Shown here: positions 9,314 to 40,470 of the stretch, one piece after another
Layout of the letters: each line of letters begins with the position of its first letter
How positions within the stretch are numbered: the stretch's first letter is position 1
NCBI GenBank assembly: GCA_027622665.1
Contig: JAQBYT010000028.1
Location: 1-54,410 of the forward strand
DNA length: 54,410 nt
Reading direction: 5' to 3'
DNA from: Verrucomicrobiota bacterium
GTDB taxonomy: Bacteria > Verrucomicrobiota > Verrucomicrobiia > Opitutales > Seribacteraceae
Made by a program: the position numbers and the translations under genes
Notes under the pieces: model-generated
Database searches by the model: none
Told to the model about the DNA's origin: nothing
The model's input: the letters and a program-made list of their open reading frames with translations, nothing else

Positions 9314-9489
9314 TCGAACGAAGTTTTCGAGAGCCGTTTTCGAACTTTCCCGTTTATGCGAAAATGTCATCTGATCAGTCGGAGGCAACACAGTGCATTT
9401 TCTTAGCCTTGGTTATTTAATTGAAGGACTTGCTTTAAGTCTTAATCGGATACTTGACACTAGAATGTTTTTTTGCGTATCGGTTGTAT

Positions 9490-12400: not shown

Positions 12401-12876
12401 CCTCGGATTTTGATTTGTTTACCTCTGAAGATTTAAATGTCACTGTTGAATCTGCGGTAACCGAGGCTAGGAGTTTCGCTTTGGATGAAGGGAAGTCGTT
12501 GGTAAAAGCGAACCCCGGAAACTTTGGTCTATACTCAGCTTCTGATTTGAACGCCTCTTTAAATCAAGCATCCGAAACTGCTCATGCTTCGGCTTTGATC
12601 TTGGGAAAAGGCATAGGAATAGAGTTAGTTCTTTCGAACCCTGTATCTTTCGGATTAAAGCAAGTCTTGGGGGAAGTCGGTGCCACGCCGCATACCCTCA
12701 ACTGGTACTACCAACCCGATTGGGGCTGGCTCTGGACGAACAAACAAACCTTCCCTTATGTCTACCGCACCGGATCGGCAGGCAAAACTCCTGGCTGGCT
12801 CTACTTCAAGGAAGGCTCTTCGGATCCAATAGAGTACTACGAATACGGTTCGGAGAAGTGGGTGACGCTCGAGTAA
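9490..12876 (+). CDS. Large secreted S8 (subtilisin-like) serine peptidase, multidomain
   Basis: Signal peptide from ATG 9490, propeptide, catalytic VAVFDSG / HGTQVAG / GTSFSAP, oxyanion AAAGN, DDDNNGYIDDINGWDF loop; then an InlB-B-repeat-like domain, DTDGDGL motif, tandem repeats and an aromatic C-terminal domain. Confidence 0.92.
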   Translation: MRLHSLIFSLFFLCFVNVRFVEAEHVPNEIIVRYHDGTNQSEKNATAVKFKLNFKKAFKLTNAVLYNVDAKVSLNDLQVEIEKLKSVKYVSFNRVYRKQSVDPFFATQWYLDNTGQSIRWFSGTSGIDIGWLDALDLYQKKETSFVAVFDSGFAKDHSELIGRNAYRNGESAGIAGFDDDNNGYIDDINGWDFIDNDNDPYDFKGHGTQVAGIIAAVKDGKGIQGITDDTFIYPLRVLDRDGRGNTADIVEALEYVYQNPGVRIINISLGGGSFDPLLAEQFKMFEKDDKVLIVAAAGNGGPDGKGDNNDWFPYYPSTYNSSSIISVASIDQKGNLSSFSNYGSSTVDIAAPGESIRVATVERELKFTQQADGNGWMEQFFWSQSSKSWKRTYYGITPWMESPRSYTNHSTVQPSFLDLSNMKDPRLKLSLDFSLLNGGKTYLSVTANLSDYKYLNTFSYSNTGGTGVFEYDISEYAGDDSVWIKFSFYPNSTSEHFDIGPIKVYDVDTNFWGSAYYTYNEGTSFSAPIVSGVAALIMSHRPDLLASDIKKILMDSVKPLTSLNGKVKSGGMVRADKALELANTYLTRSSMTFNAAPETEITDNGEVKQIDPAEWNTSGEKQVMGRITGAGHYFDGDRISIEAIPEQGFLFTGWTQPGTDWTSDSATYAFTSGAIDYTVTANFGPDHNDTDGDGLTHYWEAYFGTDPNNPHSDSDSLNDLEEWQVYWQAKQLEPTTDDSVRIAKLEEILGKNSHTLGLAEGKSLVTSNPSNYQLFTARDLNASIKLASDTVHAAALIEGKEIGINTVKAKPSDFDLFTSEDLNTSVESAVTVARGSALEEGKSLVTKNPSGFDLYTTSDLNASIKLASDTVHAAALIEGRNSGIETVMTKPSDFDLFTLEDLNVTVESAVTEARSSALNEGKSLVKANPGNFGLYSASDLNASLHQASETAHASALIEGRNSGIETVMATPSDFDLFTSEDLNVTVESAVTEARSFALDEGKSLVKANPGNFGLYSASDLNASLNQASETAHASALILGKGIGIELVLSNPVSFGLKQVLGEVGATPHTLNWYYQPDWGWLWTNKQTFPYVYRTGSAGKTPGWLYFKEGSSDPIEYYEYGSEKWVTLE
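11761..12657 (+). repeat. In-frame 240-nt (80-aa) tandem repeat, about 3.7 copies
   Basis: Units start at 11761, 12001, 12241, 12481; 12121-12360 vs 12361-12600 differ at 9 of 240 nt by manual count. Confidence 0.95.
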
Positions 12877-12880
12877 GGCA

Positions 12881-13579
12881 TTACTCTTCCACGAATTTGC
12901 CGTCGAGCATGGGAAGGCGGCGATCGCAGCGTTTTGCGAGCTCGGGATTGTGGGTGACTAAGATGACGGCGGGGCCGTCCTCTCGGGCGAATTTGAGAAG
13001 GAGGTCAAATACGCGATCGGAATTGGCGGCGTCGAGGTTGCCAGTGGGTTCGTCGGCCAAGATGAGGTCGGGAGAGTTGGCGAGTGCTCGGGCGATGGCT
13101 ACCCGTTGTTGCTCGCCGCCGGAGAGCTTGTTGACGAAGCGGTCGGCCTTATCGGCGAGGCCAAGATGGTCAAGAAACTTGTCGGCTCGGGCGAGAGCTT
13201 CTACGGCCGGTTTGCCTGCCTTGCGGAGGGGCAAGGCGACGTTTTCTCGTGCGGTGAATTCCTTAATTAGGAAGTGAAACTGAAAGACGAAACCAATGCT
13301 TTCGTTGCGGAGGGCGGTACGGGTGGGATCGTCGGCTTTAGTCATGGGCTTGCCGCGGAGGTATATTTCACCTGAGTCGGGCTGGTCAAGCAAGCCTAGG
13401 AGGTAGAGCATGGTGCTCTTGCCGCAGCCGGAAGGACCGACGATGGCGGTTACCTCCCCTGCCCTTGCCTCAAAGGATACGCCCCGAAGGGCTAACACCC
13501 TACCCTCGCCTTCCCCGAAGGAATGGCTCAGGTTTTCCACGCGAAGAATCGGCGTGTCGCCATGGACTTTATCGTTCAC
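12881..13579 (-). CDS. ABC transporter ATP-binding protein, LolD/MacB-NBD type
   Basis: GPSGCGKS, GFVFQFHFL, LSGGEQQRVAIARAL, ADEPTGNLD, VTH. Confidence 0.9.
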   Translation of the reverse strand: MNDKVHGDTPILRVENLSHSFGEGEGRVLALRGVSFEARAGEVTAIVGPSGCGKSTMLYLLGLLDQPDSGEIYLRGKPMTKADDPTRTALRNESIGFVFQFHFLIKEFTARENVALPLRKAGKPAVEALARADKFLDHLGLADKADRFVNKLSGGEQQRVAIARALANSPDLILADEPTGNLDAANSDRVFDLLLKFAREDGPAVILVTHNPELAKRCDRRLPMLDGKFVEE

Positions 13580-14823
13580 AAGGTTTCGCGGATGATTTTG
13601 GCTGGTTCTATGCGGGCTGCTCGACGGGCTGGTATCCAGCTGGCTATCCCCACGACGACGATGGCGATGGCGACGGCCCAGAGATAATGGGATATGTCCC
13701 AGTTTACCACGAAGCTATCGGTGGAGAATACTCCTCGTATGCGTAGGGGTATGCGTGAGATACCGAAGGTGGCGGCAGCGGCGAGGAGGCAGCCCAGGAC
13801 TATGCCCAAAGCAAGCACGAGAGCTCCTTGCCAGAGGAATATGCGGGAGACGTCTCCTGGAGTGAAACCCATGGAACGCAGGATGGCCACGTCGCGTGTC
13901 TTCTCGATGACCATGATGGCGAAGACGTTGAACATGCCCAGACCGGACAAGAGGATAATGGTGGAAACGGTGATGGCGGAGGAGACTCGGAGGGCTTTGA
14001 ATACGTCGAGCCACACTTTTTCCCGTTCCTGCCAACTGACCACGCGGTGCGCGAAAGTCTCCTGCATCTGGGCGGCCACGGCAGGCGCGTCTTCGGGTTC
14101 GCGAATCCCCACTTGAAAGACTGAGCCTCCGTGCGGATTGCGTAGAAAGGAGCGGGCGGTGGATAGATCGAGGTAGATGCGACTTTTGTCGATTTGACTG
14201 ACGCCTGTTTCGAATATGCCCGCTACGCGAAGGTGGAGCGACTCGTGGGAACCGGCTAGAATGACGCGATCACCGGGTTCCAGCCGAAGGCGTTCGGCGA
14301 TGCGGTTGCCCACAAGGATGCCCAGCCGGTCGTCCCGGAAGTCCTTTATTCCGCCCTGAATGACCTGATCTTCCAAATCCGATACGGCGATATGGTCACT
14401 TGCCCTTATGCCGTGTATGCGAACGGAGTGAGAGCGTGAACCCGTGTCGAGGACGCCGGCTCCCTCGAGAATTTCCGAAACGCCAGTGACTCCAGTGAAC
14501 TCCGCTGTCGCCTTTCGGAGTTCTTCGGGGTACTCGATGCCCTCGACGTAGCGGGCGCCTTCACGAGAGCGGAAAACAAAGCGCACCCGACCATCGTCGG
14601 AGACCTTGGTCACAGTACCGTCTACGTCTTGAAAGCGATCGGATACTCGAATGGCGCCATTCGTACCGAGAATTGTGCGAATGAAGAAGGTCTCGAAACC
14701 GGAAGTCTGGGCTTGAGTAACGATGAAGAAAGCTATTCCGAACACGATACCGAGCAAGCTCATCCCCATAGCCCGTTTTCGGGCCATCACGTATCGCAGG
14801 GCGACTTGAAGCGACAGGATCAC
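13576..14823 (-). CDS. ABC transporter permease, LolC/E-FtsX-MacB type
   Basis: TM1, large periplasmic domain, then three TMs with EKTRDVAILRSMG and PARRAARIEP. Confidence 0.88.
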   Translation of the reverse strand: MILSLQVALRYVMARKRAMGMSLLGIVFGIAFFIVTQAQTSGFETFFIRTILGTNGAIRVSDRFQDVDGTVTKVSDDGRVRFVFRSREGARYVEGIEYPEELRKATAEFTGVTGVSEILEGAGVLDTGSRSHSVRIHGIRASDHIAVSDLEDQVIQGGIKDFRDDRLGILVGNRIAERLRLEPGDRVILAGSHESLHLRVAGIFETGVSQIDKSRIYLDLSTARSFLRNPHGGSVFQVGIREPEDAPAVAAQMQETFAHRVVSWQEREKVWLDVFKALRVSSAITVSTIILLSGLGMFNVFAIMVIEKTRDVAILRSMGFTPGDVSRIFLWQGALVLALGIVLGCLLAAAATFGISRIPLRIRGVFSTDSFVVNWDISHYLWAVAIAIVVVGIASWIPARRAARIEPAKIIRETL

Positions 14824-15941
14824 TTGCCACCGACGGGGACGGGTTTGACTTTCTGGCCGTCGCGAAAGAGGTGTGGGGTTTCCACGATTACCTGTTCACC
14901 TGCCTCCAGTCCATCGAGAATCTCGGCGGTGAGCAGGTTCCGAGCCCCTACCTTGACCTCACGTGCTTCGGCTACCCCGTTTATTACGACAAACACGGCG
15001 GAACCCATGAGTGCCTTGCGAGGTACGACGAGAGCATTTTTTCGTACGGACTTGATTATTTCGGCCCTCCCCGAACTTCCGGGTGTAAAACGTTCGTTTC
15101 CACTCTCGAGTTCGACGTATAACTTTCGACGTCCGGAGGCCGAGTCTACAGTGGGGGACAAGCGGGTGACGTTTCCCTCGAAGATTTGAGCTCCTTGGGA
15201 TAATAGCGTGACCGCGACTTCCTGTCCCTCTCGAACTCCGGCAAAGTCTTCTTCGTTTAAAGTCACCACAATCAGGCGATCGTTGGAGACTACTTGACCG
15301 AGATGGGCACTGGGGGAAATCATGTCGCCGGGTGCAACAAAAGAAAGGGTCATGAGTCCGGGAATGGGGCTTCGGATTTTCGTTTTTTTCAGGTTGGCCA
15401 GTAACCGTGCTTCCTGAATCCGAAAAGTTTTGGATTGTTCATCATTTGTAATCTTTTCTTGGGTCAACTGAGTTTCCAGCCGTTTGACCAGACTTTTCTT
15501 ATTCTCTAGGTCTGACAATGGCAATTTGCCTTGTTCTGCTAAGGCATTCCACGCTTGCATTTCGCGTTTTTCCGTTTCCAGTTGCATGGCGATTGCCGAA
15601 CCTGCTGCGATACGTTTCTCTTGGTGCTCACGGGCGACGTACAGTTGCTTCAATGATCGCTCGTCCTCGGTGGCGTCGAGGGTGAGCAAGGTTGAATTCT
15701 CTTCCACGGCAATGGGTTTCCCGTTGGGCAGCATGATTGTGTTGGTCACGATTCCCGAAACACTTGAACGCAGATCGTGGGTTCGTTCCGCAAGTACAAG
15801 CACATTTCCCGGAACGCCATCACGAACCGTTCCTATCACGACGGGCTTCACGATTACCTCGGGGATCGCACTTACGATCAACCACCAACAAAGAATAGAT
15901 AATGCCCCCAAGGGCAGAGCAACCTTAATCAATAGCTTCAT
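14820..15941 (-). CDS. Efflux periplasmic adaptor (MFP, MacA/HlyD-like)
   Basis: N-terminal TM, lipoyl halves flanking a coiled hairpin (IRSPIPG), ALVVPRKAL, GLEAGEQVI. ATG 15941 preferred. Confidence 0.85.
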   Translation of the reverse strand: MKLLIKVALPLGALSILCWWLIVSAIPEVIVKPVVIGTVRDGVPGNVLVLAERTHDLRSSVSGIVTNTIMLPNGKPIAVEENSTLLTLDATEDERSLKQLYVAREHQEKRIAAGSAIAMQLETEKREMQAWNALAEQGKLPLSDLENKKSLVKRLETQLTQEKITNDEQSKTFRIQEARLLANLKKTKIRSPIPGLMTLSFVAPGDMISPSAHLGQVVSNDRLIVVTLNEEDFAGVREGQEVAVTLLSQGAQIFEGNVTRLSPTVDSASGRRKLYVELESGNERFTPGSSGRAEIIKSVRKNALVVPRKALMGSAVFVVINGVAEAREVKVGARNLLTAEILDGLEAGEQVIVETPHLFRDGQKVKPVPVGGK

Positions 15942-16017
15942 GGAGTATGAACAGGGAACCAGTCCCGGAAAAAAGACCATTTAAGCCGCGATTCTTCAAT
16001 TTGTCAAAGACAGGTTA

Positions 16018-17358
16018 CTAATGAGTTTCTTCAATGTGCAGGTTGTACTGCGCTCGTACGTTTAGGTAGTCGACCACGGTTCGAATAAGTGAAAGGCGGC
16101 TTTGATCAAGAGAAAGTCGAGATGAGAAAAATGCATCCGGGGTGATCCTGTTTCGATCAAACTCAATGCGACTCTTTTCAAAGCGGTCCTCGGACGCACC
16201 TAACAGTTGGCGACTGGAATCGATTGTCTGGGCACGCGTTACCAGGTATTCGCGCAAACTCCGGGCTTCCAATTGGAGGTGCCTAGTTTCCCTTTCCAGT
16301 TGAATTTCGTATCGTCTCTTACGAGCCATCGCTGCTCGCTTTTCACCTCGACTTTGCGATGCATCGAAAAGGGCCCAGTTTGCTTCAAGACCGATAGTGA
16401 AATTGTTGCGATCCACTGAAGATCGACTATCAGCAAGGTCGATCTTGTCCTGATGAAAACCTCCAATCAAGTTCAGTTTTGGTCGCAAGGCGGACTTGGC
16501 TATGATAATTCGTTGGTTTTCGGCCTCTATGGCACTATCGATGTTTTTAAGTGCAGTCGAAGTTGTGTTGCTAGCGAGAATGGGAAGATTGAGGCCAAAT
16601 CGATGTGTTTGGGCAAAGTCGCGAAAATCGTCCGAAATAGTAAGGTCGAGGCCACCCACACTTCCCGAATCCTCCATGAAGATTCGGGTGTTTCGGGCAA
16701 GTTTTCGTTTCATTTCCGCAAAGTTTATTCTTTGTTGGAGCACAATAATTTTTGCCTCCGAAACAGATAATTCAGTAACGAGACCAAGGCGCATACGTTC
16801 TTTCATTCCATCGAGATTGGATTCAGCCAGTTCCATGCTTCTACGGGTCAACTCGATTTCGTAGGTGGATAGAACGAGTCCGAGGTAATCTACACGGATA
16901 CGATCTAGGAAGTTTCTTCTGAAATCTGAAAAAGAAGCAGAACTTGATGATTCGGACAATTCCGCCACTCTACTTCCCGCCTGCAAGGCTCCCCAGTGGT
17001 AGAGTGGTTTGCGAACGTATGCAGATGCCAAATAGCGATATTGCTGGTAGTAGTTGGCATTTGGACGATCCTCGTAAAGTGAATGACCATTTAAGCCAAC
17101 GGAGAGGCGGAATCCTCGCTTGGAGTCGGCTACCATACGATTGGCGGTAGCCTCGTTTACCTTTTCACGTTCCTGAAGCAGAATAGGGGCATTCGCTTCA
17201 ACGCTATTCAGGACGGCACTTAGAGAAGGAAAAAATGATTCAGCTGTTTCAGTATAAGATGTATGTGTGCCGTTTTTATCTTCTGCCTGTCCATGGGAGT
17301 CTAGAGACGATGACATCGAAACAACCGACCACGACAGGATGTAAAGGAAGCGGAACAT
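16018..17358 (-). CDS. TolC-family outer membrane efflux protein
   Basis: Signal peptide, two OEP-like halves (KPLYHWG; RPKLNL...WALFD), long amphipathic helices; directly upstream of the MFP gene. Confidence 0.8.
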   Translation of the reverse strand: MFRFLYILSWSVVSMSSSLDSHGQAEDKNGTHTSYTETAESFFPSLSAVLNSVEANAPILLQEREKVNEATANRMVADSKRGFRLSVGLNGHSLYEDRPNANYYQQYRYLASAYVRKPLYHWGALQAGSRVAELSESSSSASFSDFRRNFLDRIRVDYLGLVLSTYEIELTRRSMELAESNLDGMKERMRLGLVTELSVSEAKIIVLQQRINFAEMKRKLARNTRIFMEDSGSVGGLDLTISDDFRDFAQTHRFGLNLPILASNTTSTALKNIDSAIEAENQRIIIAKSALRPKLNLIGGFHQDKIDLADSRSSVDRNNFTIGLEANWALFDASQSRGEKRAAMARKRRYEIQLERETRHLQLEARSLREYLVTRAQTIDSSRQLLGASEDRFEKSRIEFDRNRITPDAFFSSRLSLDQSRLSLIRTVVDYLNVRAQYNLHIEETH

Positions 17359-17461: not shown

Positions 17462-18139
17462 TCAGTCGCCTTTAAAGGCGTCTTTGTACATGTCCTTCAA
17501 TTGGGCACCCGTCCACTGGTCTTTTTGCGCGGAGGCTTCATCTCGGAAGGTAGCGACCTGTTTCTCTGTGACCTCCGAAGCGTCGTGCCCCCAAGCCTTG
17601 CGGGCATAAGAGACTACGCTGGCGATCTCTCGATCATTCAAAGGTTGTGGCGGCATGTTAACCGTTGCCACAGTGCCATACTTTTTACCAAGGACTTCGA
17701 TTTCGCCTTTCAATCCCCTCAATACGATTTTTGTAATGATTCCGGGATCAGTCGTGGCCCACTTAGAACCGACGAGGGGGGGGAACAAGTCTTTGCCCAT
17801 TCCATCGGGGTTGTGGCATGAGGCGCATCGACTGTTAAATAATTTTTTGCCTCCGGCCAACTTACGCTTCATTCGTTTGGCTTCCTGTTCTTCGGGAGTC
17901 AATGAAATCTCCGGGGCGGGCGGATGAACCCGAAAGTGATTAGTGCTGTGAGCTAGTTGGATTGCGCAGAAAAAAACGAGACATCCGAAGAGAAAAACGA
18001 AAACAAGAGGTGCCTGCAGAAAGTGCTTTGTCGGAGGGTGTTTTTCTCGGCCGAGCTCGGCATGGACATTGACGAGTTCCTTATCACTCATCTCCGAGTT
18101 AGAGTCTTTTTTTACAACCTTTTTCTTCGGAGTGCTCAT
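17462..18139 (-). CDS. Membrane-anchored monoheme cytochrome c
   Basis: One TM, CASCH, FPPLVGS, distal NMPP; ATG 18139 overlaps the upstream stop (ATGA). Confidence 0.88.
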   Translation of the reverse strand: MSTPKKKVVKKDSNSEMSDKELVNVHAELGREKHPPTKHFLQAPLVFVFLFGCLVFFCAIQLAHSTNHFRVHPPAPEISLTPEEQEAKRMKRKLAGGKKLFNSRCASCHNPDGMGKDLFPPLVGSKWATTDPGIITKIVLRGLKGEIEVLGKKYGTVATVNMPPQPLNDREIASVVSYARKAWGHDASEVTEKQVATFRDEASAQKDQWTGAQLKDMYKDAFKGD

Positions 18140-19281
18140 TTGGAGTCTCCCTTCAATTCTGCGACCGTCCACATTTGCATCGGTGCCCTACCCGCGACAG
18201 TTGATCTAACCGTTGCTACTTCTGCTGAAGAAACTGACGATGCAGAGTTTCCCCAATCGTTGCGGACATAGGTCAACACATCCGCAATCTGTTGATCCGT
18301 AAGGGCCCCCGGGGGAATGCCGGGGGGAGGCATGGCTGAAGTGTATACCGTTCCCTTTACTTTTACCGGGCCCATTAAGCCGAACATGGCTATCTTGATT
18401 AAAGTTGGCTTGTCTCCCAATACCCATTCGGATCCCGCAAGCGGGGGGAACTGTCCGGGCAAGCCGAGACCTGTCGATTGGTGGCAGGTAAAGCACATAC
18501 CACCGCCAGGGGCAGCCTTCATGTAGATTTCCTTACCGGAAGCTATTTGGTCTGAGAGCCACTTCGGGAGTGCGGCGGCACTTGCGTTAACATCGGAATG
18601 GTATTCACCATGATCATCTTCCTTGACTTCGACAAATGCCATTTCAGGCAATTCGTAGTTTTGTCCGAGCGATTGCAGGTAAGAGACGATCTTTTGAGCC
18701 CGAAGAGTAGGAAATATATGCCGTGAGGTTTCACTCTCAAGATGACCGGAGTGATCGCTGTGATCATCATGGACTTCGATGGTACCGCTAGTTGCTTCAT
18801 CTTTAACTTCAAAGAGAAAAGGACTCGGCGGGCATATGGACCCGGGGACGGTTGCTTGCGGATCGAACAGATGACGATGAAGCCACTCGTCTGTAAACCC
18901 CCTAAGTCCGACATTGGCCAGATCAGGCCCGATACGAGTGTTTCCCAGGAGGACATTGTCCTGCAGGATGTAATCTCTAGCCACGGAAGGCCTTTTACCC
19001 CACTTTCGCTCGACGTCGAAGCCGGATTCGGTGAGGCGAACTTGCTGAGTATGGCAAGACATGCACCCGAGGGATATGTATTCCTCTGCACCCTGCTTGG
19101 CTATGCCGGGGAGATCCTTAGGAAACAAATCGGCACCAGCGGGTATGGAACCGTCTTCCTCGAGAACCTCTGCCGTCGGTTCGAGATCCCCGAATTGACT
19201 ACGGGCTCCAACAATGAACGCCAGCCAAGAGACGAACAATGTGAGAAGAGTTCCGAACGAGAAGGTGAAAAGGTTGTTCAT
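18136..19281 (-). CDS. CcoO/FixO-like cytochrome fused to a second cytochrome c domain (diheme)
   Basis: N-terminal TM, GCMSCHTQQVR, RIGPDLANVG, WLHRHLFDP (CcoO signature); His/acidic linker; second domain CFTCH...FPPLAGS...AMPP. Confidence 0.88.
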   Translation of the reverse strand: MNNLFTFSFGTLLTLFVSWLAFIVGARSQFGDLEPTAEVLEEDGSIPAGADLFPKDLPGIAKQGAEEYISLGCMSCHTQQVRLTESGFDVERKWGKRPSVARDYILQDNVLLGNTRIGPDLANVGLRGFTDEWLHRHLFDPQATVPGSICPPSPFLFEVKDEATSGTIEVHDDHSDHSGHLESETSRHIFPTLRAQKIVSYLQSLGQNYELPEMAFVEVKEDDHGEYHSDVNASAAALPKWLSDQIASGKEIYMKAAPGGGMCFTCHQSTGLGLPGQFPPLAGSEWVLGDKPTLIKIAMFGLMGPVKVKGTVYTSAMPPPGIPPGALTDQQIADVLTYVRNDWGNSASSVSSAEVATVRSTVAGRAPMQMWTVAELKGDSK

Positions 19282-20690
19282 GATTTGCCCTCCTTCACGG
19301 AATCACCGGAAGGTTTGCTGCAGCAGAAGTTGATCGGACCACAGATTGATCGCCAAACATTGACGACGAAGACCAGTTGGGAAACACCCAGAAGGATGAA
19401 GGCGAACTCGGATATCAGGAAGTAGGGTTTTACTGCAGTGACTACGCTTTCCGCCCACGCCAATGAGGGTTGCTGGGCGAGGACGCCGTGTGTAAGACCT
19501 CCGATAAGGTAGGCTAGCAAAAGGGCCATTACTCCAAAGGCCGAAGTCCAGAAGTGAAAGGATGCGGCTTTCTCGCTCGTTTTGTTTCCGGTGATCCGAG
19601 GAAGCATGTAGTAGACCACACCGAATATGATCATGCTGAAGAATCCGTATACACGCTGATTGAAGTGAAATTCGTTGATAATGGAGAACTGAGTGATCTT
19701 GGCTACGGCGGGGAGTGAGAAAATAATCCCGATATAACTGGAAATAGTATATGAGATCGTACCGAATATAACGAACCGCAGCGGAAGGTTGTTCCAAACT
19801 TTACCAATGTCCTTGAATGCAGTGGCGTGAAAATTCGTAGACGCGACGGCGATCGGAAACACCATGGCGATGCTCATTACTGTTCCAATGGCAGGTATCC
19901 ACATTGGGAATGGACCGCCCTCAAGATGATGAAGACCTGACCATGGAGCCAAGAAAGCGATGCACCAGAAGCCGAAAATGGCCAGATAGTACTTTTCTAT
20001 CGGTCGCCCAAGTATCTTGGGGATAAGGTAGTAGGCAGAGCCTAGAGCTATTGGTGTAATCCATAGCCAAATAACGTTTTGCGAGTACCACATCGATACT
20101 ACGCTTTGCACTGTTCCGCGACCGGGATTTAACTCCAAACCTTGCCACGCTACCAGAAAAAGAGCGGGGAACCAAAGAAACGAAGCCAATACGAACCATT
20201 GTGTGACATAGGTCTCCCGCTTAACGCGAGATCGATGCAAGACGAAGATCATGGCAGCGATTACGAAATAGGACACCAACAGCGCCGGCCAAACGACAAC
20301 GGGCATTTCCATCAAGTCGGAAGAGGTCATGTGCCCGGCAAAGATTCCACCGAGTCCGAGTGTAATAGCTATGTTCCAAACCGCTCCTGCTACGATGAGA
20401 TAAAAGCGCCCTCGCACTTCAGCTTGTCCTAGACGAGCCAGTAACCAAATGCTTACGGCAAAAACTGCATTGGATGCCCAACCGTAAACGAATGCGTTGG
20501 TTTGGGCTGCCTTTACTTTTCCATAAGTTAGAAATTCGCAAGAACCCAAGAAAGTCGGGTCGGTGGACTTGGCTGCAACGACATAGGCTAAGGCAGCAGC
20601 CACCAGAAGCCATAGTCCTGCGGAAGCAAGGAAGAAGGATACGACTAATCGGGCGGACTTATCAATCAAGCTTTCGTTCGACTCGCTCAT
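19278..20690 (-). CDS. CcoN/FixN-like heme-copper oxidase subunit I homologue with degenerate metal ligands
   Basis: About 12 TMs colinear with CcoN (LTYG..., YVTQWF, YYLIPK..GRP, HHL, LRF, YYMLPR, HFW) but several ligands substituted; see findings. Confidence 0.88.
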   Translation of the reverse strand: MSESNESLIDKSARLVVSFFLASAGLWLLVAAALAYVVAAKSTDPTFLGSCEFLTYGKVKAAQTNAFVYGWASNAVFAVSIWLLARLGQAEVRGRFYLIVAGAVWNIAITLGLGGIFAGHMTSSDLMEMPVVVWPALLVSYFVIAAMIFVLHRSRVKRETYVTQWFVLASFLWFPALFLVAWQGLELNPGRGTVQSVVSMWYSQNVIWLWITPIALGSAYYLIPKILGRPIEKYYLAIFGFWCIAFLAPWSGLHHLEGGPFPMWIPAIGTVMSIAMVFPIAVASTNFHATAFKDIGKVWNNLPLRFVIFGTISYTISSYIGIIFSLPAVAKITQFSIINEFHFNQRVYGFFSMIIFGVVYYMLPRITGNKTSEKAASFHFWTSAFGVMALLLAYLIGGLTHGVLAQQPSLAWAESVVTAVKPYFLISEFAFILLGVSQLVFVVNVWRSICGPINFCCSKPSGDSVKEGKS

Positions 20691-21025
20691 TTTTCGTCCC
20701 CTTCCGTTCCGGTTTCATTGGACTCATCCGAGTCGGATGCTTTGTCTGAGGAGTACTCGTTCACTGTGCCCTGCATCACGCTTTCCAAGCTTGAATTCAT
20801 TTCGGTATGGGCCCTGTCGATTAATTCTGTGAAATTACCTTCTTCAGATCGATAGGTAGCCACCTTCTTCATTCTTTCGTTGATAACTTTATTGTCAACG
20901 GGTGCCAGTTCCTCGGTGGGTAGGCACTGTCGTAAAATAAAGAAAGCAAAAACTAGAACAGTCGCGACTATCAGCGAGAAAAAGACGCTGCAGCCATCGG
21001 CGCGCTGAAGTGTCGAGTTACTCAT
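20687..21025 (-). CDS. Single-TM hypothetical protein between actF and the ccoN-like gene
   Basis: Overlaps both neighbours; one hydrophobic helix followed by a charged helical region. Confidence 0.75.
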   Translation of the reverse strand: MSNSTLQRADGCSVFFSLIVATVLVFAFFILRQCLPTEELAPVDNKVINERMKKVATYRSEEGNFTELIDRAHTEMNSSLESVMQGTVNEYSSDKASDSDESNETGTEGDEK

Positions 21026-22328
21026 GGTAGTTGATTGAAGCCTTTATACGTGGATCTCGAACCGGTATTATTTCAGCATCTGATTCGCGATAGCTTTTGA
21101 GAACCGCCCAAATGCATAGACCGCCGACGCCGACCAAGGCAAAGAGTCCCCATATGAGCTGAGTCCCTAAGACGAATCGAATGTCATAACCAACGGGAGA
21201 TTCAGGATTGGGAATACGACCGGGAATGATGTTCCAATAGAGATCGAGCAAGTGGAAGCAAAGAATCCAACCAACTATCTTTAGGGTCTTGTGGGGTTCC
21301 ACCTTGTTTTTATACCAGAGCAAAGCGAGGAAGGGAACGAGGAAGTGACCGAATATCAATCCCATGGAGACCCAGAACCAACCCGTTCGCTCACCGGTGT
21401 TCGGATTGATTTCTCGAATCACGTACCAAAAAGTTTCTTCTGGGATGTTGGCGTAATAAATAAGAAAGTACTGGGAAAAACTAATGTAGGCCCAAAATAC
21501 GGTGAATGCCAAGGATAGGCAGGCAAGATCGTATTGATGTGCCTTGAAATTATAAAAGCCCCTCAAGTCCGTCCGAGTTGCGAGGACGAAGCAAACGATT
21601 ATGGCAACGGCCAAACCTGCCCGAATGGATGCAGCAAAGAACCAGACGCCAAACATGGTAGAAAACCAGTGGTATTCGAGACTCATGAACCAGTCGAAAG
21701 CACCAAAGGTAAGGGCAATGGCACAAGCAGGTAACCCCGCGGCAGCAATGTTGTGACCCCATTGGGTCCATTTGGAATCCCCGTCACGGTCTTGGGTGAA
21801 AGATACCTTGCGCATCCAATACGCCAAAGAGCAGAATATGGCGAAATAGCCAATGGTTCGAACGCTGAAGGAGAACACGTTGAGGTAACCACTTTTTTTC
21901 AGAAGCAATACGTCGTGCCCGACTTTGTGTACTTCACCTGCGACAGGGACGTCGCTGGCGGGGTTGACCCAGTTCCATAATACTCCTGCTTGATCGCCGC
22001 CAAACCAAACTACGAGAAGAAGAGGAAGGAAGCAGACTCCTAACCAAGGAAACGCCGCCAAGCAGTGTTCCATCTGACGTCTTACGACGGGTGTCCACTG
22101 GGAGTTGAATACTCGAAAAAGCATGATCAGCATGAGCATACCAATGGCGATGCTAAGCCAGAAAGCAGTACCCCACAACCATCCTAGAAATGGGTTCTTG
22201 TCGCCATTTGCGAGACCCATGAAAAGACCGATTAATCCGCCTCCGAGTCCAATGGCGGCAGCACCAAGGCACTTGGTGGATAAATCAGTCTTTTGACCAA
22301 GTATTCCAGTTGCTTCGTCGGCACTCAT
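21018..22328 (-). CDS. actF: Alternative complex III subunit ActF
   Basis: Polytopic; FDWFMSLEYHWFSTMFG, FWAYISFSQYFLIYYANIPEETFWY, DLYW motifs; operon position. Confidence 0.9.
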   Translation of the reverse strand: MSADEATGILGQKTDLSTKCLGAAAIGLGGGLIGLFMGLANGDKNPFLGWLWGTAFWLSIAIGMLMLIMLFRVFNSQWTPVVRRQMEHCLAAFPWLGVCFLPLLLVVWFGGDQAGVLWNWVNPASDVPVAGEVHKVGHDVLLLKKSGYLNVFSFSVRTIGYFAIFCSLAYWMRKVSFTQDRDGDSKWTQWGHNIAAAGLPACAIALTFGAFDWFMSLEYHWFSTMFGVWFFAASIRAGLAVAIIVCFVLATRTDLRGFYNFKAHQYDLACLSLAFTVFWAYISFSQYFLIYYANIPEETFWYVIREINPNTGERTGWFWVSMGLIFGHFLVPFLALLWYKNKVEPHKTLKIVGWILCFHLLDLYWNIIPGRIPNPESPVGYDIRFVLGTQLIWGLFALVGVGGLCIWAVLKSYRESDAEIIPVRDPRIKASINYHE

Positions 22329-22984
22329 TCGACTACCTCCAGTTTGCGCGCATATCCAACATAGGATTGCAAAGCTCTAACATAGAGAACAATTGCCCAG
22401 CGCTCCCTGGGGTTCAGTTTATCGGCAAGTCCTAGCATGATTTTAGATGCGGAGCCTTTTGAGATCGCATTGAAAATTTGACCGTCGGGCCATGGTTGTA
22501 AAGCTTCCAGGTATGTGGCATTGACACTGGGGTCGGATAGGTTTTTTGGCAATAATCCGAATTGAGCAGTGACGCCTCGACCGTTTCCATATCGTCCATG
22601 GCAGTTGCTGCAATGAATGTCGTACCCCTCTTTACCTTGCCTAATCAAAGCCATGTCCATTCCGATTTGTGCGGGAATTCGCGCGGTGAAGTTGCCGTCG
22701 GAATCCTTGCCTGTTCGAAGAACCTCAGAGCCAATATCGATGTCAGAGGAAAATACGTTTTCTAGGTCGATTGCGTTCCCTCGTACAACGGAACCAACAG
22801 GTGGCAGTCGGTCGGATCGACGATCCGGAAAAAGATTGTTCTCTGATTGTTCCAAAAACTTCAGTTGCCGATCCATATCGGGAAACACTTCTATAGGAGG
22901 GTTCTTCGATGTGTCTCCGCGGAATCCCAGGATCGAGATAACGGTAATAATGGCCAAAGCATAAATCCAAAGGAAGTATCTCAT
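22325..22984 (-). CDS. actE: Alternative complex III monoheme cytochrome ActE
   Basis: PIEVFPDMDRQ, R..PVGSVVRG, CSNCHG, RWAIVLYVRALQ. ATG 22984 sits 1 nt after the actD stop. Confidence 0.88.
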   Translation of the reverse strand: MRYFLWIYALAIITVISILGFRGDTSKNPPIEVFPDMDRQLKFLEQSENNLFPDRRSDRLPPVGSVVRGNAIDLENVFSSDIDIGSEVLRTGKDSDGNFTARIPAQIGMDMALIRQGKEGYDIHCSNCHGRYGNGRGVTAQFGLLPKNLSDPSVNATYLEALQPWPDGQIFNAISKGSASKIMLGLADKLNPRERWAIVLYVRALQSYVGYARKLEVVE

Positions 22985-22985
22985 A

Positions 22986-23558
22986 TCAAAACTCCTCCGG
23001 TTCGCGTATGAGACCAACGGACTTACCGCCAATATCCTTCAGGAAATCTGCGGTTTCGTCATCCTCGAATTTTGGATCTTCCACCTCGATGACAATCATG
23101 AACTTGTCATCTCCGGTACGACCGAACTTTGGGTGCTCGAAAACGGGATGATTATGTCTTGGCAGTCGGTTAAGAAAAAACATGCCGAACAAGGTTCCGA
23201 ATGCGGCAAACAAAATAGTGAGCTCGTAAAAAACGGGAAAAGGGAAAACCGGACTAAAAAACGGTTTTCCGCTGGCGATGAGGGGGTAGTCAAACGCATT
23301 CATGTACCATACGATAAACATGCCAGTTAAAAAACCTGTGACTCCGCCCGCCAAAGTGAAGCGTGGAACCTTGGAGCGTACGGGAAAGCCCTTGTCATCC
23401 AAACCGTACATTTGTACGTCTAGCCCGTGTATGGGAATCGGTGTGTAACATTCCCAACTGGTATAGCCGGCATCCCGTACCTTAGCGGCCGCGATATAGA
23501 TCTCACTAGCGGAATTAAAAGCCGCAGTCAGCCCGTATTTTGTGCCGTTATTCGCCAT
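22986..23558 (-). CDS. actD: Alternative complex III subunit ActD (DUF3341)
   Basis: YTPIPIHGLD, DYPL..SGKP, ELTILFAA; two TMs; operon position. Confidence 0.9.
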   Translation of the reverse strand: MANNGTKYGLTAAFNSASEIYIAAAKVRDAGYTSWECYTPIPIHGLDVQMYGLDDKGFPVRSKVPRFTLAGGVTGFLTGMFIVWYMNAFDYPLIASGKPFFSPVFPFPVFYELTILFAAFGTLFGMFFLNRLPRHNHPVFEHPKFGRTGDDKFMIVIEVEDPKFEDDETADFLKDIGGKSVGLIREPEEF

Positions 23559-23586: not shown

Positions 23587-25008
23587 TCAATGTTTCCCCG
23601 CGTGTGGATCTGCCATGGGGGTTACGGACTTCACTTCAGCCAAGGGCATGAGTGGAAGAAAACGAAGGAACAGAAGGAATAGCACCGAGAAAAACCCGAA
23701 AGTACCAAAGAATGTAAACAAATCGACGACTGTGGGTGAATAGTAACCCCAACTGGAGGGAAGGAAATCACGAGACAAGGTGGTGTTGGCTATAACAAAG
23801 CGTTCGAACCACATTCCTACATTGACGAATATGGAAATGACCCAAACTAGAGGTGTGTTTTCTCGTATTGCCTTGAACCAGAACAATTGCGGGCAGATGA
23901 CGTTGCAAGAAACCATGATCCAATAGGCCCACCAGTAGTTGCCGAAAGCACGATTGATAAAGGCAAATCCTTCATAGGAGTTAGCGCCGTACCATGCGAT
24001 GAAGAACTCCATGGAATAGGCGTAACCGACCAAGCTACCCGTAGCCAAGGTAATCTTGCACATGTTGTCTATGTGCTTTTGGTTGATAAGGTCGTGGAGA
24101 CCAAATACGGCGCGGACGGGCAGGAGAAGTGTCATAACCATTCCGAAACCCGAGAATATAGCACCCGCAACGAAATAAGGCGGGAAAATGGTGGTGTGCC
24201 AACCAGGTAGGTTGGCTATGGCGAAGTCAAACGACACGATGGTATGAACCGAAAGTACGAGTGGTGTGGAAAGCCCTGCCAAGAGCAGGTAGGCCATCTC
24301 GAAGTTTCGCCAGTGGGTGTTTGAATTGTTCCAACCCATGGAAAGGAATCCATAGAAGTACTTTCGCCACGCCTTTTTGGCTCGATCCCGCAAAACAGCG
24401 AGATCGGGTATCATGCCCATGTACCAAAAAAGAACGGACACAGTAAAGTAGGTCGACACGGCAAAAACATCCCATTCCAAAGGGCTCTTGAATTGAGGCC
24501 AAATGTTGTTTGCGTTGGGAATGGGAAACAGCCACCATGCGAACCATACCCGACCGAGGTGAAACAGTGGGAAAATACCGGCGCACATAACGGCAAACAC
24601 GGTCATGGCTTCTGATCCGCGATTAATAGACGTTCTCCACTTTTGCTTGAGGAGGCACAGAATTGCTGAAATCAGCGTGCCGGCATGACCTATGCCGATC
24701 CAGAAAACAAAGTTTACAATAGCCCAACCCCAGTTGACAGGATTGTTGTTCCCCCATTCGCCTACTCCCGATGACACAAGAATGAGAAGCCCCATTCCGG
24801 TGAAACTGGCTATGCCCAGTGCAAAAATGAAGCACCACCACCACCAATTTGGCGTCTTCGCCTCAACTATTCCGCAGATCTTATCTGTAATCCAATGAAG
24901 ACTCCGCTTGTTCAGAACAAGTGGTTGTTCATCCAATTTGGCTGGATTGATTTTTTTAAGAATCTCTGATGATTGCTCAACCACATCTGTAGTTGCCGAA
25001 CTCATCAA
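23587..25008 (-). CDS. actC: Alternative complex III quinol-oxidising subunit ActC (NrfD/PsrC family)
   Basis: [76 protein letters not shown]. Confidence 0.95.
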
Positions 25009-28000
25009 TGGTGAGCACTCCCATTAGTCTCAGTAGGATTATCGCCATGATTGTCGTGACCATGATCTTCGTGAGAAGGGTGAGCCCGCTCATGATATTC
25101 GCGTGAGGAATAAGGTTTGTCGGTTGCATCCGGCATGTCCGGGTTCGGGTTTCGGATGCGAGCCATGAAGGTAGTGCGGGGTCGCGTATCGAGGTATCCC
25201 AGAACCGAGTAATCTCGCGGATTGGTTTTCAATTTTGAAACTTTGCTGTCGGGGTCGGAAATATCGCCGAATTCTATGGCGTCCGCCGGGCAAACCTGTT
25301 GGCAAGCGGTTTTAATTGTCCCGTCAGGAACCTTAAGTTTATCATGAATATCTAATTCCGCGCCATTTTTGCCCGTGGAAAACTTCTCACTTCGTTGAGC
25401 CTTAACTTTGGTACTAATTTTAGCTTCTTGAATTCGTTGTACGCAGTAAGTACATTTTTCCATTACGCCTCTCATCCTTACGGAGACGTCGGGATTTTTC
25501 ACAAGGGTCGGCAGCTTGGGGTTCTCATCTCCTAAAGGACCAAGATAGAGTTCATCCGTTTTTCTTTTATTCCAATCAAAGAAATTGAAGCGACGTACCT
25601 TGTATGGGCAGTTGTTGGCGCAATAACGGGTGCCAACGCAACGATTGTAGGCCATTACATTCAGTCCCTCTTCGTCATGAACCGTAGCAGCTACGGGACA
25701 GACCTGTTCGCAGGGAGCGTTTTCACAGTGCATGCATGCCACACCTTGGAAATTGACTTGCACGTCGGAAGGGATTTCGGCTCCTTCACGTTCGGTGGAA
25801 CTGAAGTAGCGGTCTAGGCGAATCCAGTGCATTTCACGACCGCGTAGCACTTGATCCTTACCTACGACGGGAATGTTGTTTTCGCTTTGACAGGCAACGA
25901 CACACGCATTGCAACCAGTGCAAAGGTTCAAGTCTATGGACATTCCCCATTGATGGAGTCCGGTGTGATCCGGGTGTTCGTAGGCTGAGTGTCCACGCGG
26001 TGTGGTTTGGGACTTGTGTTTAAGGCCCTCGTTGTCTTCCCTGCCATATGTGAGAGGGGAGTGCGATTCCACGCCCATTTCGGAGGCAAAATCCTCCTTG
26101 CCCGCGTACTCGTCGGCATTTGCCTCTCGAACGATCGCACGGCCTTCCATCGACCAGTGTTCTTGCACATTGGCGAGGGTTTGCCTACTTTTCGTAGTGG
26201 AAAGTGTTACTCCTGAAGCAATGCGGGAAGAATCAGAACCGAGAAGAGGGTATCCATCGTAGCCAGTGCCCTCACCTACTCTTCCGACTGTTCTTCTACC
26301 CATTCCGAGGGTGGCAATTAAGGTGTAGTCCGCCAATCCCGGTTGGACGTGAAGTGGTCCTTCGATGGAGGAACCGCCTGCCAAGGTAAGCTTCACCACG
26401 GGAGCATCTTGTTTACCAAGATCGAATACGGCGGTGTCGGGTGCGACCTCGCCATTTTTGTTCAGCATGGTCGGCTTGGGAAGTAGGTTAAGACCTTTGT
26501 GCTTCTTCTCTAATTCCGCAGCTAGAACCGGACTGACGAGGATCGCATTGTCCCAAGTCAGCTTGGATATCGGATCGGGGCATTCCTGCATCCAGCCATT
26601 GTTTGCGTAGCGTCCGTCCCATGCGTGAAAGTCAGGAACTAAAAGTACTTCAAGTGAATCGGCTGTGGGCGCTTTGGGTAGGTCGTCCTTGAGATCGGCC
26701 AGTTTATCAAAATCATACACTGGCGAGACAAAGGAAACTTTGCGAGGAAGTAGACCGATCCGAAGAAAGTCATCAAAAGAACTTCCATCAGACAGTTCGT
26801 TGAAGGTTTCCTGAACCAATGAATGCGAAGACTTTTCTTCACCCGCTACAATTGAAAGGACATCAAGTTCGGAAAAGGTTTCGAAGAGCGGTTCGATCAA
26901 TGGTTGCACTGGCAAGTGCGCGGAAAGATCCCAAGTCGTCCCGTCGCCCCAGCATTCCAAATAGTGGGATGCGCCAATATGCAAATTGGAGAATTCGGAA
27001 GTTTCATCGATGGACGAACCAAACCTGATGGTAAGATCGACCTTTTGGGCCAAGGCCGACCAATCTAACTTTGCCGGACTTGTAAAAGTAGGGTTGCCGC
27101 CTAAGAATATTAAGGTGCCGATTTCTCCCGCCTCGATGGCTTCGACTAAATCAGATATATTCGAAGAGTCGTTACTTGAAAGTTCTGCGTATTGAACAGT
27201 TTCCCCGTTAGCACCTAGCGCTTGATTGATCGCGTAAGTAAGTACATGCGCTTCCTCGGGCAAATGATTACCTGCGAGCACCAAGGATTGGCCTTTATGA
27301 GCGACTAAATCGATTGCAGTTTCTTTGCACCACGAGGAGTCCAAGCCTGCCTTGGCAGCGCGTTCTTTCAAAAGCTCTATCACGGAGTCACTCGATTTTT
27401 CCGTAAGTGAAAGAACTTCGGCAGCGACGGCACTGGCGAATGCAACCATTTGAGAAGAGGAAAGGCGCAGTCTGTGGTCGGCGGCGGCACCGGTGAGGGT
27501 GAGGTCGGACTCCACAGAGTAGAGGCGATTCATTTTCTTGGAGTCCGCGGCACTCAAGACCTTTCGACCTTTTGTGAACTCACGGGTGAGCCGGAGGTGG
27601 TCCGGTTCGCGCATTCCCAGAAAGTCGCAATCAATGGAGAGTATGCGTTTAGCCTTTTTCAATCTGGCCAAGGAACGCAAGGGACCTGTCGACAATGCAT
27701 TGCCCAAAGCTTTTGCTGCAGTCGATGAGTCGATGGGATCGTATTCGGACCAGATTACGCCCTTGTCGCGTAACTTCGCAGCAAGCTTTGCTCGAGCTGG
27801 GGAACTGGATGATTCCGCAAGAACGGCTACCTTGCCTTTGGCTAATCTGTCGGGAGAGAGAAAACTTTCAAGTGTCTTTACGGCATCACTCTTTAGGGTC
27901 TTTTCCCAAGCAAATGTTTTTTTGTCACCAGTGCCCGAAGTGCTGGACTCATAACTACCTTGGGCGCGGTCGGGATCATAGAGACCTAGTACGGTAGCTT

Positions 28001-28412
28001 GCGAATGGACGTCGGTACCACCACCCGCTGGCAAATAACTTGGGTTGCCCTCTATCTTTGTAGGTCTTGACTGGTGACTCTCGACAATCAGAGGGACATG
28101 TCCAAAGGAAGTGGGAAGCGAAGTGGAATAGTAGTTGGGGATTCCGGGAATGACTTCCTCTGGTGATTTGCCATAGGGCATAATTGCCTGCTCCGGCCGT
28201 CGACAGCCTGTCATTCCGAATCCGGCTAGGCCAAAAGAGGCGGCCATTACCTTCATGAAATTGCGTCGCTGGACACCATCAATCAGGGAAGCTCCTTCAG
28301 GGAATTCTCGTTCAACCCAAGTGCGGAACGCCGGAGTTTCAGCCAGATCGTCCAAGCTTTTCCAATAGCGAGAGCCTGAAGGTCCCTTTCCGTTCGGATT
28401 TTTCATAGTCAT
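25005..28412 (-). CDS. actB: Alternative complex III subunit ActB (molybdopterin-fold domain + Fe-S domain)
   Basis: YWKSL start, twin-arginine RRNFMK...GC signal, RPTKIEGNP; Cys groups CTGCNAC...C, CMHC..PC..VC, CVGTRYC...C, CTYC...CQQVC. ATG 28412 overlaps the actA stop. Confidence 0.95.
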
Positions 28413-29149
28413 CGATGGCATCCGCTGCAACTGACAGGAGGATGTATGCCCCACTTCTCCTTGAGATTTAACCCTGCGTGGGCTTGAATCGCGACGGGGT
28501 CTTCACTATCAGTGAGAGTGGGCAACCACGAAAGGTCAGTGACTTTGTCCAAGGGGCGAAGGGCATCTTCTGGGTTGCGATGGCAATCCAAGCAAAATGC
28601 CATGCTCAAATGCTTGGCGTGAGAAACTTCTTTCATCTGGTCGATCCTGCCGTGGCATGCTACGCAACTTACGCCACGATTTACATGTATGGCGTGATTG
28701 AAGTAAGCATAGTCTGGCACTTTATGAATACGAGTCCAAGGTACTGCAGGACCTTGGCTAAGTATGCCGTCGTTATTTGCGTCTTCTCCTTTGTTTAAGA
28801 TACCGTCCTTGTTTTTGTCTTCCCCGTAATAACTCGCTCGAATTGGCCCTAAGGCAGGTGAGTCAGCCTTGATCGTCTTGTGGCAACTCATGCAAATATT
28901 GGCTGCGGGAACACCTGCATGGGCAGACTTGTCGACGCCATGATGGCAATATCGACAATCCAGTCCCAGTTCGCCTACGTGGAAACTGTGATCGTATGAT
29001 ACGGGCTGGGTGGGTTGATAGCCAACCCGCGTATACTTTGGAGTGGCGTAATAATTTATGCCCGCAGATACGCCGACTCCAATTAGCCCTAAGCCGACAA
29101 TGACCTTTAAAGGTATTGTATTAGTCCAGCGAGGAAAGATGTTGCTCAT
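28409..29149 (-). CDS. actA: Alternative complex III pentaheme cytochrome ActA
   Basis: N-terminal TM, QPVSYDH..H, five CxxCH (CRYCH, CMSCH, CVACH, CLDCH, CSGCH), PDYAYFNH..H. Confidence 0.95.
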   Translation of the reverse strand: MSNIFPRWTNTIPLKVIVGLGLIGVGVSAGINYYATPKYTRVGYQPTQPVSYDHSFHVGELGLDCRYCHHGVDKSAHAGVPAANICMSCHKTIKADSPALGPIRASYYGEDKNKDGILNKGEDANNDGILSQGPAVPWTRIHKVPDYAYFNHAIHVNRGVSCVACHGRIDQMKEVSHAKHLSMAFCLDCHRNPEDALRPLDKVTDLSWLPTLTDSEDPVAIQAHAGLNLKEKWGIHPPVSCSGCHR

Positions 29150-39467: not shown

Positions 39468-40388
39468 TTAAGATACGGTATTCGATATTCTCTTGAGTAC
39501 CGCAAGGAAGGCTCGGAATTCCTTAAACGATTCCCGAGTCCTTGTCTTGATATCAGACACATCGTCTTCTTTGAGTCCCATCCGAGCTATGAGCATTTCC
39601 GGCGCTTTCCCGTGGGAGCGATGACCGCTGAAACCAAAATGCATAGCGTGGGCAGTCCAGTTCCCCAGTGATACGACGTCGATCAGACGGTGCAGGTCAA
39701 CGGTGCCAATTCCGATCCGTTTTTCGATTTCATGTTCATGGTGCCAATGAACAACAGACTCGACATCTTGATTCAACCCCCATTTCTTGCATACCAGATG
39801 GCCCAAAACATGATGGAGAGGAGAACCTTTTTTTTCCTCTATTTGATGGAGTGGTATTTCATCATACAATGCATCTCCGACATCTTGGCAAAAGGAATCC
39901 GAATCCAATCGCAGACGGGCAACTTTGCCAATATCGTGAATAAGTCCGCTCGTGTAAGCTCGTTGAGGAACACATAAACCTGTGAGTTCCGCAATAGTTG
40001 ACGATGCTACGGCAGTTCCTAAACTGTGTTGCCACAAGTCGGCAGGTTCGAACTTTAGGTCTTTGCTGGAAAAAGAGAAAGCTTCGAAAACTGCGGTCGT
40101 TAGGATTACCATGTGTATCTTGTCGAAACCAAGGGTGCCTATGGCTTCCTCCACATCCGTAACTCGAGAACGGGCGCCGCGATAATATACATTATTGGCA
40201 ACCCGCAAGATCTTCATCGTCATGCTAGGATCAGAGACCATCATTTCCCTAACTGATTGGGTTGAAGAGTTGCCGTCCTTCAGCATTGCGGACAACTCCT
40301 CCAAGACCGTAGGGATAGTAGGTAGATCTTGGCCGACCTGAATCAGTAAAGTTTGGTAATCAATCCTAGAATGAAGATCGGTATTCAT
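39468..40388 (-). CDS. HDOD domain protein (copy 2)
   Basis: LPTIP, DPSMTMKILRVAN, AI..LG, W.HS, GLIHDIGK, H..LG....WGL, WHH. Confidence 0.9.
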   Translation of the reverse strand: MNTDLHSRIDYQTLLIQVGQDLPTIPTVLEELSAMLKDGNSSTQSVREMMVSDPSMTMKILRVANNVYYRGARSRVTDVEEAIGTLGFDKIHMVILTTAVFEAFSFSSKDLKFEPADLWQHSLGTAVASSTIAELTGLCVPQRAYTSGLIHDIGKVARLRLDSDSFCQDVGDALYDEIPLHQIEEKKGSPLHHVLGHLVCKKWGLNQDVESVVHWHHEHEIEKRIGIGTVDLHRLIDVVSLGNWTAHAMHFGFSGHRSHGKAPEMLIARMGLKEDDVSDIKTRTRESFKEFRAFLAVLKRISNTVS

Positions 40389-40470
40389 GAAAAGTCAAAG
40401 ACTGACTAATAAAGAGAAATAAATACAGGTTTTCAAGCTTATTGCCTAGTCAACAGCTCGCCGTATCGAC

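Follow-up and report, generated by a model that had tools for sequence, protein, structure and literature searches.

The window analysed here is the whole 54,410-nt stretch of contig JAQBYT010000028.1 (GCA_027622665.1) from a marine Verrucomicrobiota bacterium of the Opitutales family Seribacteraceae. On its minus strand, downstream of the genes for alternative complex III (ACIII), it encodes a full-length homologue of CcoN, subunit I of the cbb3 oxidases, in which three of the six histidine ligands and the cross-linked tyrosine are replaced. Judged from its sequence, this protein is a real, selected pseudo-oxidase that varies the cbb3/ACIII arrangement and does not belong with the reductases of O2 or NO. 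The explanation that we favour, and consider probable though well short of certain, is that it acts as a scaffold in the membrane for a module of c-type cytochromes on ACIII, whose His/Met domains would pass electrons to a caa3 oxidase.

Residues and Fold of the CcoN Homologue

The ccoN gene of the window (19278..20690, minus strand) is an open reading frame without an internal stop and encodes 470 aa. It was aligned by phmmer to Pseudomonas stutzeri CcoN (3MK7_A; E 7e-28, query residues 16-449), and the alignment ran at an offset of -3. In the P. stutzeri protein we take H60 and H347 to be the ligands of the low-spin heme b, H207, H257 and H258 those of CuB, H345 that of heme b3, Y251 the residue cross-linked to H207, and S240 a K-channel residue. 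The first-pass annotation had read a full-length homologue with a list of substitutions from a manual alignment, and the computed alignment reproduced each of them together with the retained histidines and the offset: H60 to Q63 (20502..20504), H207 to Q204 (20067..20081, a segment that also holds W208), S240 to A237, H243 to G240, Y251 to A248 (19926..19949, with the kept H254/H255, which correspond to H257/H258), E323 to I320, and H347 to N344. The last of the ligand changes lies in the segment F341-H342-F343-N344-Q345-R346 (19653..19670), where H342 corresponds to H345. The protein has eight histidines (120, 152, 254, 255, 288, 342, 379 and 401), none of them near a lost ligand position, and the computed alignment likewise restored no ligand at a neighbouring position.

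Compared with a functional cbb3 subunit I, both histidines of the low-spin heme b are absent (Q63, N344), two of the three CuB histidines are present (H254/H255, with Q204 in place of the third), and the helix VII tyrosine is replaced by A248. The heme b3 ligand is retained as H342, between F341 and F343/R346. W208 occupies what we take to be the A-family tyrosine position (i+4 from the CuB histidine). A NO reductase, with a low-spin heme, a high-spin heme and a non-heme metal site, does not fit either, as no heme b ligands remain; the window protein has QNVIW where NorB has HLWVE, and W208 stands at the i+4 place of the Fe ligand Glu of cNOR. The alignment therefore bears out the earlier claim that no heme b ligands and no normal binuclear centre are left. 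As far as its residues tell, the protein is without an O2- or NO-reducing site.

Fold and ancestry are those of COX1/CcoN. PF00115 matched with 158.9 bits, and an AF2 model from a 78-sequence alignment reached pLDDT 95.1 and pTM 0.94. CcoN was the best Foldseek match of this model (TM 0.88-0.89), ahead of NorB and the A/B-family subunits, and VIA-align gave Z 50.2 with rmsd 1.8 over 443 residues for CcoN and Z 43.4 for NorB. The ccoN equivalog TIGR00780 scored 129.3 bits against a cut-off of 583.15, a value that does not discriminate alone, the intact ACIII-linked copies being unscored.

Degenerate CcoN Copies in Verrucomicrobia

A profile of the degenerate homologues had matches at E <= 1e-80 in 205 of the 301 genomes of the class. 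From the higher-scoring matches listed, 120 regions were fetched, so that the proportions below are not class frequencies. These regions contained 119 CcoN-like open reading frames above 200 bits, 107 of which had actF just upstream and are called ACIII-linked. All six histidines and the tyrosine were present in 39 of these copies, five histidines in 2, three in 1, two in 5, one in 32 and none in 28; three or fewer were thus found in 66 of 107. Among wider homologues (n = 152), 76 had none of the six histidines and 14 had all six. The degenerate copies keep their genetic partners: of the 68 non-intact copies, 67 are followed by a CxxCH-bearing CcoO and 66 by a second cytochrome c, and the exceptions lie at contig ends.

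The two ACIII-linked copies with five histidines and the tyrosine (L183 and L185) have Arg for the first CuB histidine and possibly represent an early step of degeneration. The residues of the HH pair were deleted outright in 15 of 66 degenerate copies, for example at L200 (G662) and at several f133/f102-like loci, L212 and L218 among them.

An ActF tree of 107 rows, which includes the window and leaves out one short ActF, required at least 16 changes between the intact and degenerate states, and five families hold both kinds of copy. A single degenerate clade was rejected on a CcoN tree of 46 rows with the ligand columns removed (p-AU 0.015). The number of losses is blurred by long-branch effects, paralogy or replacement; long branches were seen in the quick CcoN tree, and the CcoN trees gave no support for the position at which they put the window protein.

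The positions kept in intact and degenerate copies alike are mostly Gly, Pro and Trp and residues at helix ends. Released in the degenerate copies are the histidines, the tyrosine, R60, E125, S237, H334, R427 and the glycines 208, 346 and 431. Gly208 and Gly346 are invariant in 39/39 intact copies, and in the window lineage the three glycines are Trp, Arg and Phe (W208, R346, F431). The small residues around H342 have been exchanged as well: its neighbours are G/A and A/S in intact copies, and Phe on both sides in the window lineage (F341 and F343, with R346 beyond). The cofactor pockets may thus be empty or filled by W208, F341, F343, R346 and F431. Two of the listed substitutions have to be set apart, because intact copies carry Gly at position 240 (39/39) and mostly Q (21), I (7) or L (3) at position 320. 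H243G and E323I are real differences from P. stutzeri, but we rejected them as marks of degeneration, since G240 and a non-Glu residue 320 are common to intact copies.

Selection and the Three Remaining Histidines

Among 57 loci from GTDB genomes, 56 were close relatives from Opitutales/Verrucomicrobia metagenome-assembled genomes with 67-96% identity. They had been recruited by query peptides, and a word-based set gave the same conservation of the histidines. The window and the 51 of these 56 loci that covered at least 85% of the protein made up 52 close copies. The median dN/dS of the degenerate ccoN was 0.041 (27 pairs with dS 0.1-1.2), equal to that of actF and actD, and Q63, Q204, A248 and N344 were invariant in 52/52. 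These values agree with the earlier view that the exchanges are structural and not random decay.

The retained histidines raise the question of a residual site. H342 might bind one heme, or H254, H255 and H342 together with Q204/E340 one metal, which would give ACIII a gas or redox sensor or a slow NO-binding site. H255 and H342 were present in all 52 close copies and H254 in 51, with both His codons in use; the segment 333-354 was nearly invariant, E128 invariant, and D/E125 kept. Outside the lineage the picture was different: H254 and H342 occurred in 0/66 and H255 in 9/66 of the other degenerate ACIII-linked copies. The absence of H254 and H342 from every other degenerate lineage examined marks their retention as lineage-specific, and can be counted in favour of such a site. 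However, 198 of 466 positions (42%) were invariant in the close copies, including the non-ligand H288 and H379, so the retention of the histidines lends little weight to a site, and one relative (P0077) carries H254N. The sister genus of the same family (2 genomes; ActF support 100/99) has 0/6 histidines, yet it shares W208, A248, N344 and the CcoO cysteine described below. Moreover, the Gly208 and Gly346 of intact copies have become Trp and Arg, and no heme b remains as an electron donor.

We regard a residual site as quite unlikely. H254, H255 and H342 most likely persist as relics in a lineage that evolves slowly. The first-pass annotation had allowed for a residual site of one heme and two histidines and had proposed conservation as its check. 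The three residues were indeed kept within the three closest genera, but not at family or class level, which leaves that suggestion weak at best.

Partner Cytochromes

The ccoO gene (18136..19281, minus strand) overlaps ccoN by 4 nt. Its product combines a FixO domain bearing CxxCH with an extra C-terminal c552-like cytochrome c domain of the His/Met type (window 18136-18600, minus strand), which is 35% identical to the domain of the next gene and is absent from the sister genus. That next gene (17462..18139, minus strand) matches a monoheme c552-like cytochrome c, membrane-anchored and with its axial Met kept; it is not a true CcoP. This second cytochrome c and the extra CcoO domain are both similar to Thermus c552 and to the tethered donor domain found in copper nitrite reductase. 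In 64/64 degenerate modules, the second cytochrome c retains CxxCH and the axial Met.

The original CcoO heme was altered. Cys150 (18832..18834, minus strand) aligns to Met138 of P. stutzeri CcoO (3MK7_B), which we take to be the axial heme ligand, so that the usual His/Met heme c is not present although CxxCH is. Cys was found in 53/53 close relatives, with both codons used, and in 2/2 sister-genus genomes. Elsewhere, intact modules had Met in 39/39, and degenerate modules (n = 65) had Met in 52, Cys in 9 (three families) and other residues in 4. The loop LGTMRTG was present in 33/39 intact modules and in 2 among the rest. Loss of the Met is confined to degenerate modules, a one-way link that is non-significant on independent pairs; the change to Cys occurred at least 5 times on the ActF tree (independent-pairs test, median p 0.25).

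The available text on TsdA gives -185 mV for a His/Cys heme and +172/+266 mV for His/Met (PMC6879331). On these values the CcoO heme is probably too negative for the O2 path, and the exchange suggests a low-potential heme that is probably off the path.

One could therefore ask whether the module is kept for this heme itself, as a low-potential branch of ACIII or a thiolate-heme chemistry of the TsdA/SoxA kind, with the degenerate CcoN as its anchor. Besides the potentials above, the distribution of the Cys and its origin by three base changes (ATG to TGY) speak for such a role. Met is nevertheless retained in 52 of the 65 degenerate modules and four have other residues, a pattern that fits relaxed selection too, and the test on independent pairs did not reach significance. 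Sulfur-oxidation genes were not linked in the window, with no genome search for sox made. We give this chemistry a slim chance of being the function of the module.

A broader version would unite the two ideas: in marine Opitutales, H254, H255 and H342 with Q204, E340 and R346 would form a single-metal or single-heme site, accompanied by the His/Cys heme of CcoO, whose switch to thiolate ligation would have occurred repeatedly across Verrucomicrobia. We think it unlikely. If a rebuilt site and a thiolate heme were true, ACIII would gain a low-potential side branch or a sensor on a heme-copper oxidase scaffold.

Oxidases of the Genome and the Proposed Electron Path

The genome, which is 93.5% complete, contains two COX1 proteins, namely the window CcoN and an A-type CoxA with intact motifs. 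CoxA adjoins a CoxB that carries both a CuA motif and a domain of cytochrome c type, which identifies a caa3 oxidase. Neither bd oxidase nor ccoG gave a match in this genome, and caa3 is the only intact oxidase found in it. In the family, 52/52 genomes matched TIGR00780, none above 129 bits, and FixO matched in 50/52, exactly once in 49 of these 50. These scores, together with the single FixO, indicate that there is no intact cbb3 or intact ccoN in the family genomes searched.

Two candidate explanations were dropped on this basis and on that of contig C55. A heterodimer of the degenerate CcoN with an intact CcoN is contradicted by the lack of a second CcoN in the genome, by the count of exactly two COX1 matches in 7/7 family genomes and by the single FixO in 49/50. 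ACIII as the sole quinol oxidase is contradicted by a Rieske gene and, after it, a cytochrome b that carries a fused domain with two CxxCH (G000:C55:76035-78560, minus strand); a Rieske/cytochrome b complex thus coexists with ACIII.

The scaffold explanation would run as follows. The window protein would be the ACIII-linked C-family CcoN of Verrucomicrobia after the loss of O2 reduction, kept as the membrane anchor of CcoO, and probably of the second cytochrome c as well, beside ACIII. Quinol-derived electrons would leave ACIII through the His/Met c552-like domains, that is, the anchored cytochrome c and here also the extra CcoO domain, and reach caa3. The original CcoO heme would have no heme b left to feed. 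Two natural cases of a ligand-less CcoN fused to CcoO (P0182, P0192) suggest a lasting physical tie between the two proteins.

Several observations weigh against this explanation. Those two fusions are metagenomic predictions in which frame errors are possible. The caa3 genes are not adjacent to the ACIII operon in this genome, and in the DNA fetched, A-type oxidase genes lay downstream at only 23 of the 68 non-intact loci and at 11 of the 39 intact ones. In Rhodothermus marinus, ActE donates directly to caa3 according to the accessible text of PMC5928083; a relay to caa3 is thus not required and is the weakest step. Because most intact copies cluster together in the CcoN tree, some of the mixing of states may stem from ancient paralogy or from gene replacement. 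In the close relatives, no part of CcoN is more invariant than residues 264-354 (0.90-1.00 per window of residues; 1.00 at 340-354), which is more than a bare scaffold obviously needs and might reflect a lineage-specific site in the window lineage.

The direct donation by R. marinus ActE also favours a purely architectural role, in which CcoN and CcoO would be a subunit that helps to assemble or stabilise an ACIII supercomplex, with hemes that carry no flux. The coupled genes, a selection equal to that on the act genes and the loss of the axial CcoO Met in several lineages are in line with it. However, the retention of CxxCH and Met by the second cytochrome c in 64/64 degenerate modules, and the gain of another His/Met domain in the window lineage, argue for electron flow, and we rate hemes without flux as a poor prospect. 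As a last alternative, the protein might still reduce O2 or NO with an unusual set of ligands, or be a decaying pseudogene; we find either barely credible. Close homologues are labelled cbb3 subunit I in databases, and gNOR, described as the first family in which an active-site His is replaced, tolerates one such replacement. Here, however, both ligands of heme b and one of CuB are missing, as are the NOR Glu and the Tyr that O2 reduction requires (on gNOR and the Tyr, the available text of PMC11214002, Murali 2024). Decay is excluded by the dN/dS of 0.041 and by the full-length copies that occur throughout the family.

Gene Organization in the Window

The respiratory genes form a run of overlapping genes on the minus strand in the order actA-B-C-D-E-F, a 112-aa open reading frame, ccoN, ccoO and the anchored cytochrome c. 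With actABCDEF in order, a pentaheme ActA and a monoheme ActE, the cluster is that of ACIII. It comprises actA (28409..29149; pentaheme cytochrome c with five CxxCH, without the extra monoheme domain), actB (25005..28454; molybdopterin-like and Fe-S domains), actC (23587..25008; NrfD family, PF03916), actD (22986..23558; PF11821), actE (22325..23032; monoheme cytochrome c) and actF (21018..22328; named from position and size, with no Pfam match). The order from act to the cytochrome c was held in 56/56 close loci, as far as the DNA extends. RNA-library contigs from 4 marine metatranscriptome runs span ccoN and act genes; they include no silent control stretch and cannot rank genes.

The 112-aa reading frame (20687..21025, minus strand) lies at the actG position, has one hydrophobic stretch and belongs to no known family. 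In the ESM Atlas it matched only Verrucomicrobiota clusters, with recognition under the reliable level. A conserved ADGC motif precedes its hydrophobic stretch. At five loci (L126, L129, L213, L226 and L238), a cytochrome c gene takes its place in the gap between actF and ccoN.

Genes for TolC, an HlyD-type protein, an FtsX/MacB permease and an ABC ATPase (12881-17358, minus strand) come after the respiratory operon in the close loci, and the minus strand showed no terminator-like site from the cytochrome c gene to tolC. Several other Opitutales instead have the genes for the permease and the ATPase upstream of actA. Elsewhere in the window are an S8 subtilase of 1140 aa with InlB-type and TSP3 repeats and several imperfect C-terminal repeats (9454-12876, plus strand), a tandem pair of HDOD-domain genes upstream of gap-pgk-tpi (39468-41418, minus strand) and an unusually long FliD-like protein (1151 aa) upstream of fliS (50912-54367, minus strand).

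Verrucomicrobial Methanotrophs and Implications

Four pmoA-bearing genomes of the class (G449, G312, G291 and G275; loci L138, L140 and L179-L181) contain an ACIII-linked CcoN with one of six histidines. The remaining heme-copper proteins in them comprise two of the A type, one or two of the B type and one NorB, and no intact C-family copy was found in these four genomes. We infer that they correspond to the published methanotroph organisms. At L140 (G312), an insertion of several genes, some of them for cytochrome c and ABC proteins, separates actF from ccoN; it appears to resemble the nos cluster insertion of strain IT6.

In the texts available to us, the ACIII genes of verrucomicrobial methanotrophs and Opitutaceae are described as adjoining a cbb3 oxidase (PMC8498564, citing Refojo 2010), and the cbb3 of verrucomicrobial methanotrophs is tied to high O2 affinity (PMC6688271). 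For strain IT6, one high-affinity cbb3 is reported, with transcripts not significantly changed between oxic and anoxic conditions (bioRxiv 10.1101/2024.01.15.574570). These papers thus count a cbb3 beside ACIII and link it to O2 affinity, where the four pmoA-bearing genomes have the ligand-less copy only. No prior description of a ligand-less ACIII-linked CcoN was found in the literature covered, with subscription papers and supplements outside its scope.

As ccoN is the usual marker of high-affinity microaerobic respiration, counting the degenerate form as a low-oxygen enzyme is probably wrong. Subunit I of the heme-copper oxidases is treated as always bearing its histidines; a class-wide, selected and repeatedly derived pseudo-oxidase, if true, would be a case of structure outlasting catalysis. 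The methanotrophs are culturable, so the claim is directly testable, and single families with both intact and degenerate orthologues offer natural controls.

Comparison with Known Systems

With the cbb3 core (P. stutzeri 3MK7/5DJQ and P. aeruginosa 8SMR), the window system shares the 12-helix CcoN fold at about 22-23% identity and an adjacent FixO-type CxxCH cytochrome c. It differs from that core in lacking three of the six histidines, the Tyr and the K-channel Ser of CcoN, in the exchange of the axial CcoO Met for Cys, and in a third gene that encodes a monoheme c552-like protein instead of the diheme CcoP; ccoG was not found.

The ACIII-caa3 of R. marinus and the ACIII-aa3 of Flavobacterium johnsoniae consist of an ActA-F core joined to an A-type oxidase through tethered c-type hemes, and the available descriptions of both (PMC5928083) mention no CcoN-like subunit. 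The window ActA has five hemes and is without the extra monoheme domain. cNOR NorB and the Tyr-less families eNOR, sNOR, gNOR and nNOR have, like the window protein, a heme-copper fold without the cross-linked Tyr. In the available account of them (PMC11214002), these families keep two heme sites and a metal site, whereas in the window protein three histidines are gone and a Trp stands at the position of the NOR Glu.

The nearest counterpart is the intact ACIII-linked CcoN of Verrucomicrobia. The ACIII-linked cbb3 gene is treated in the accessible part of PMC8498564 as a working high-affinity oxidase, and ligand loss is unmentioned there. The intact form occupies the same locus with the same gene order and, at no more than 40% identity, is the direct orthologue of the window protein; unlike it, the intact copies (39 of the 107 fetched) retain all six histidines and the tyrosine.

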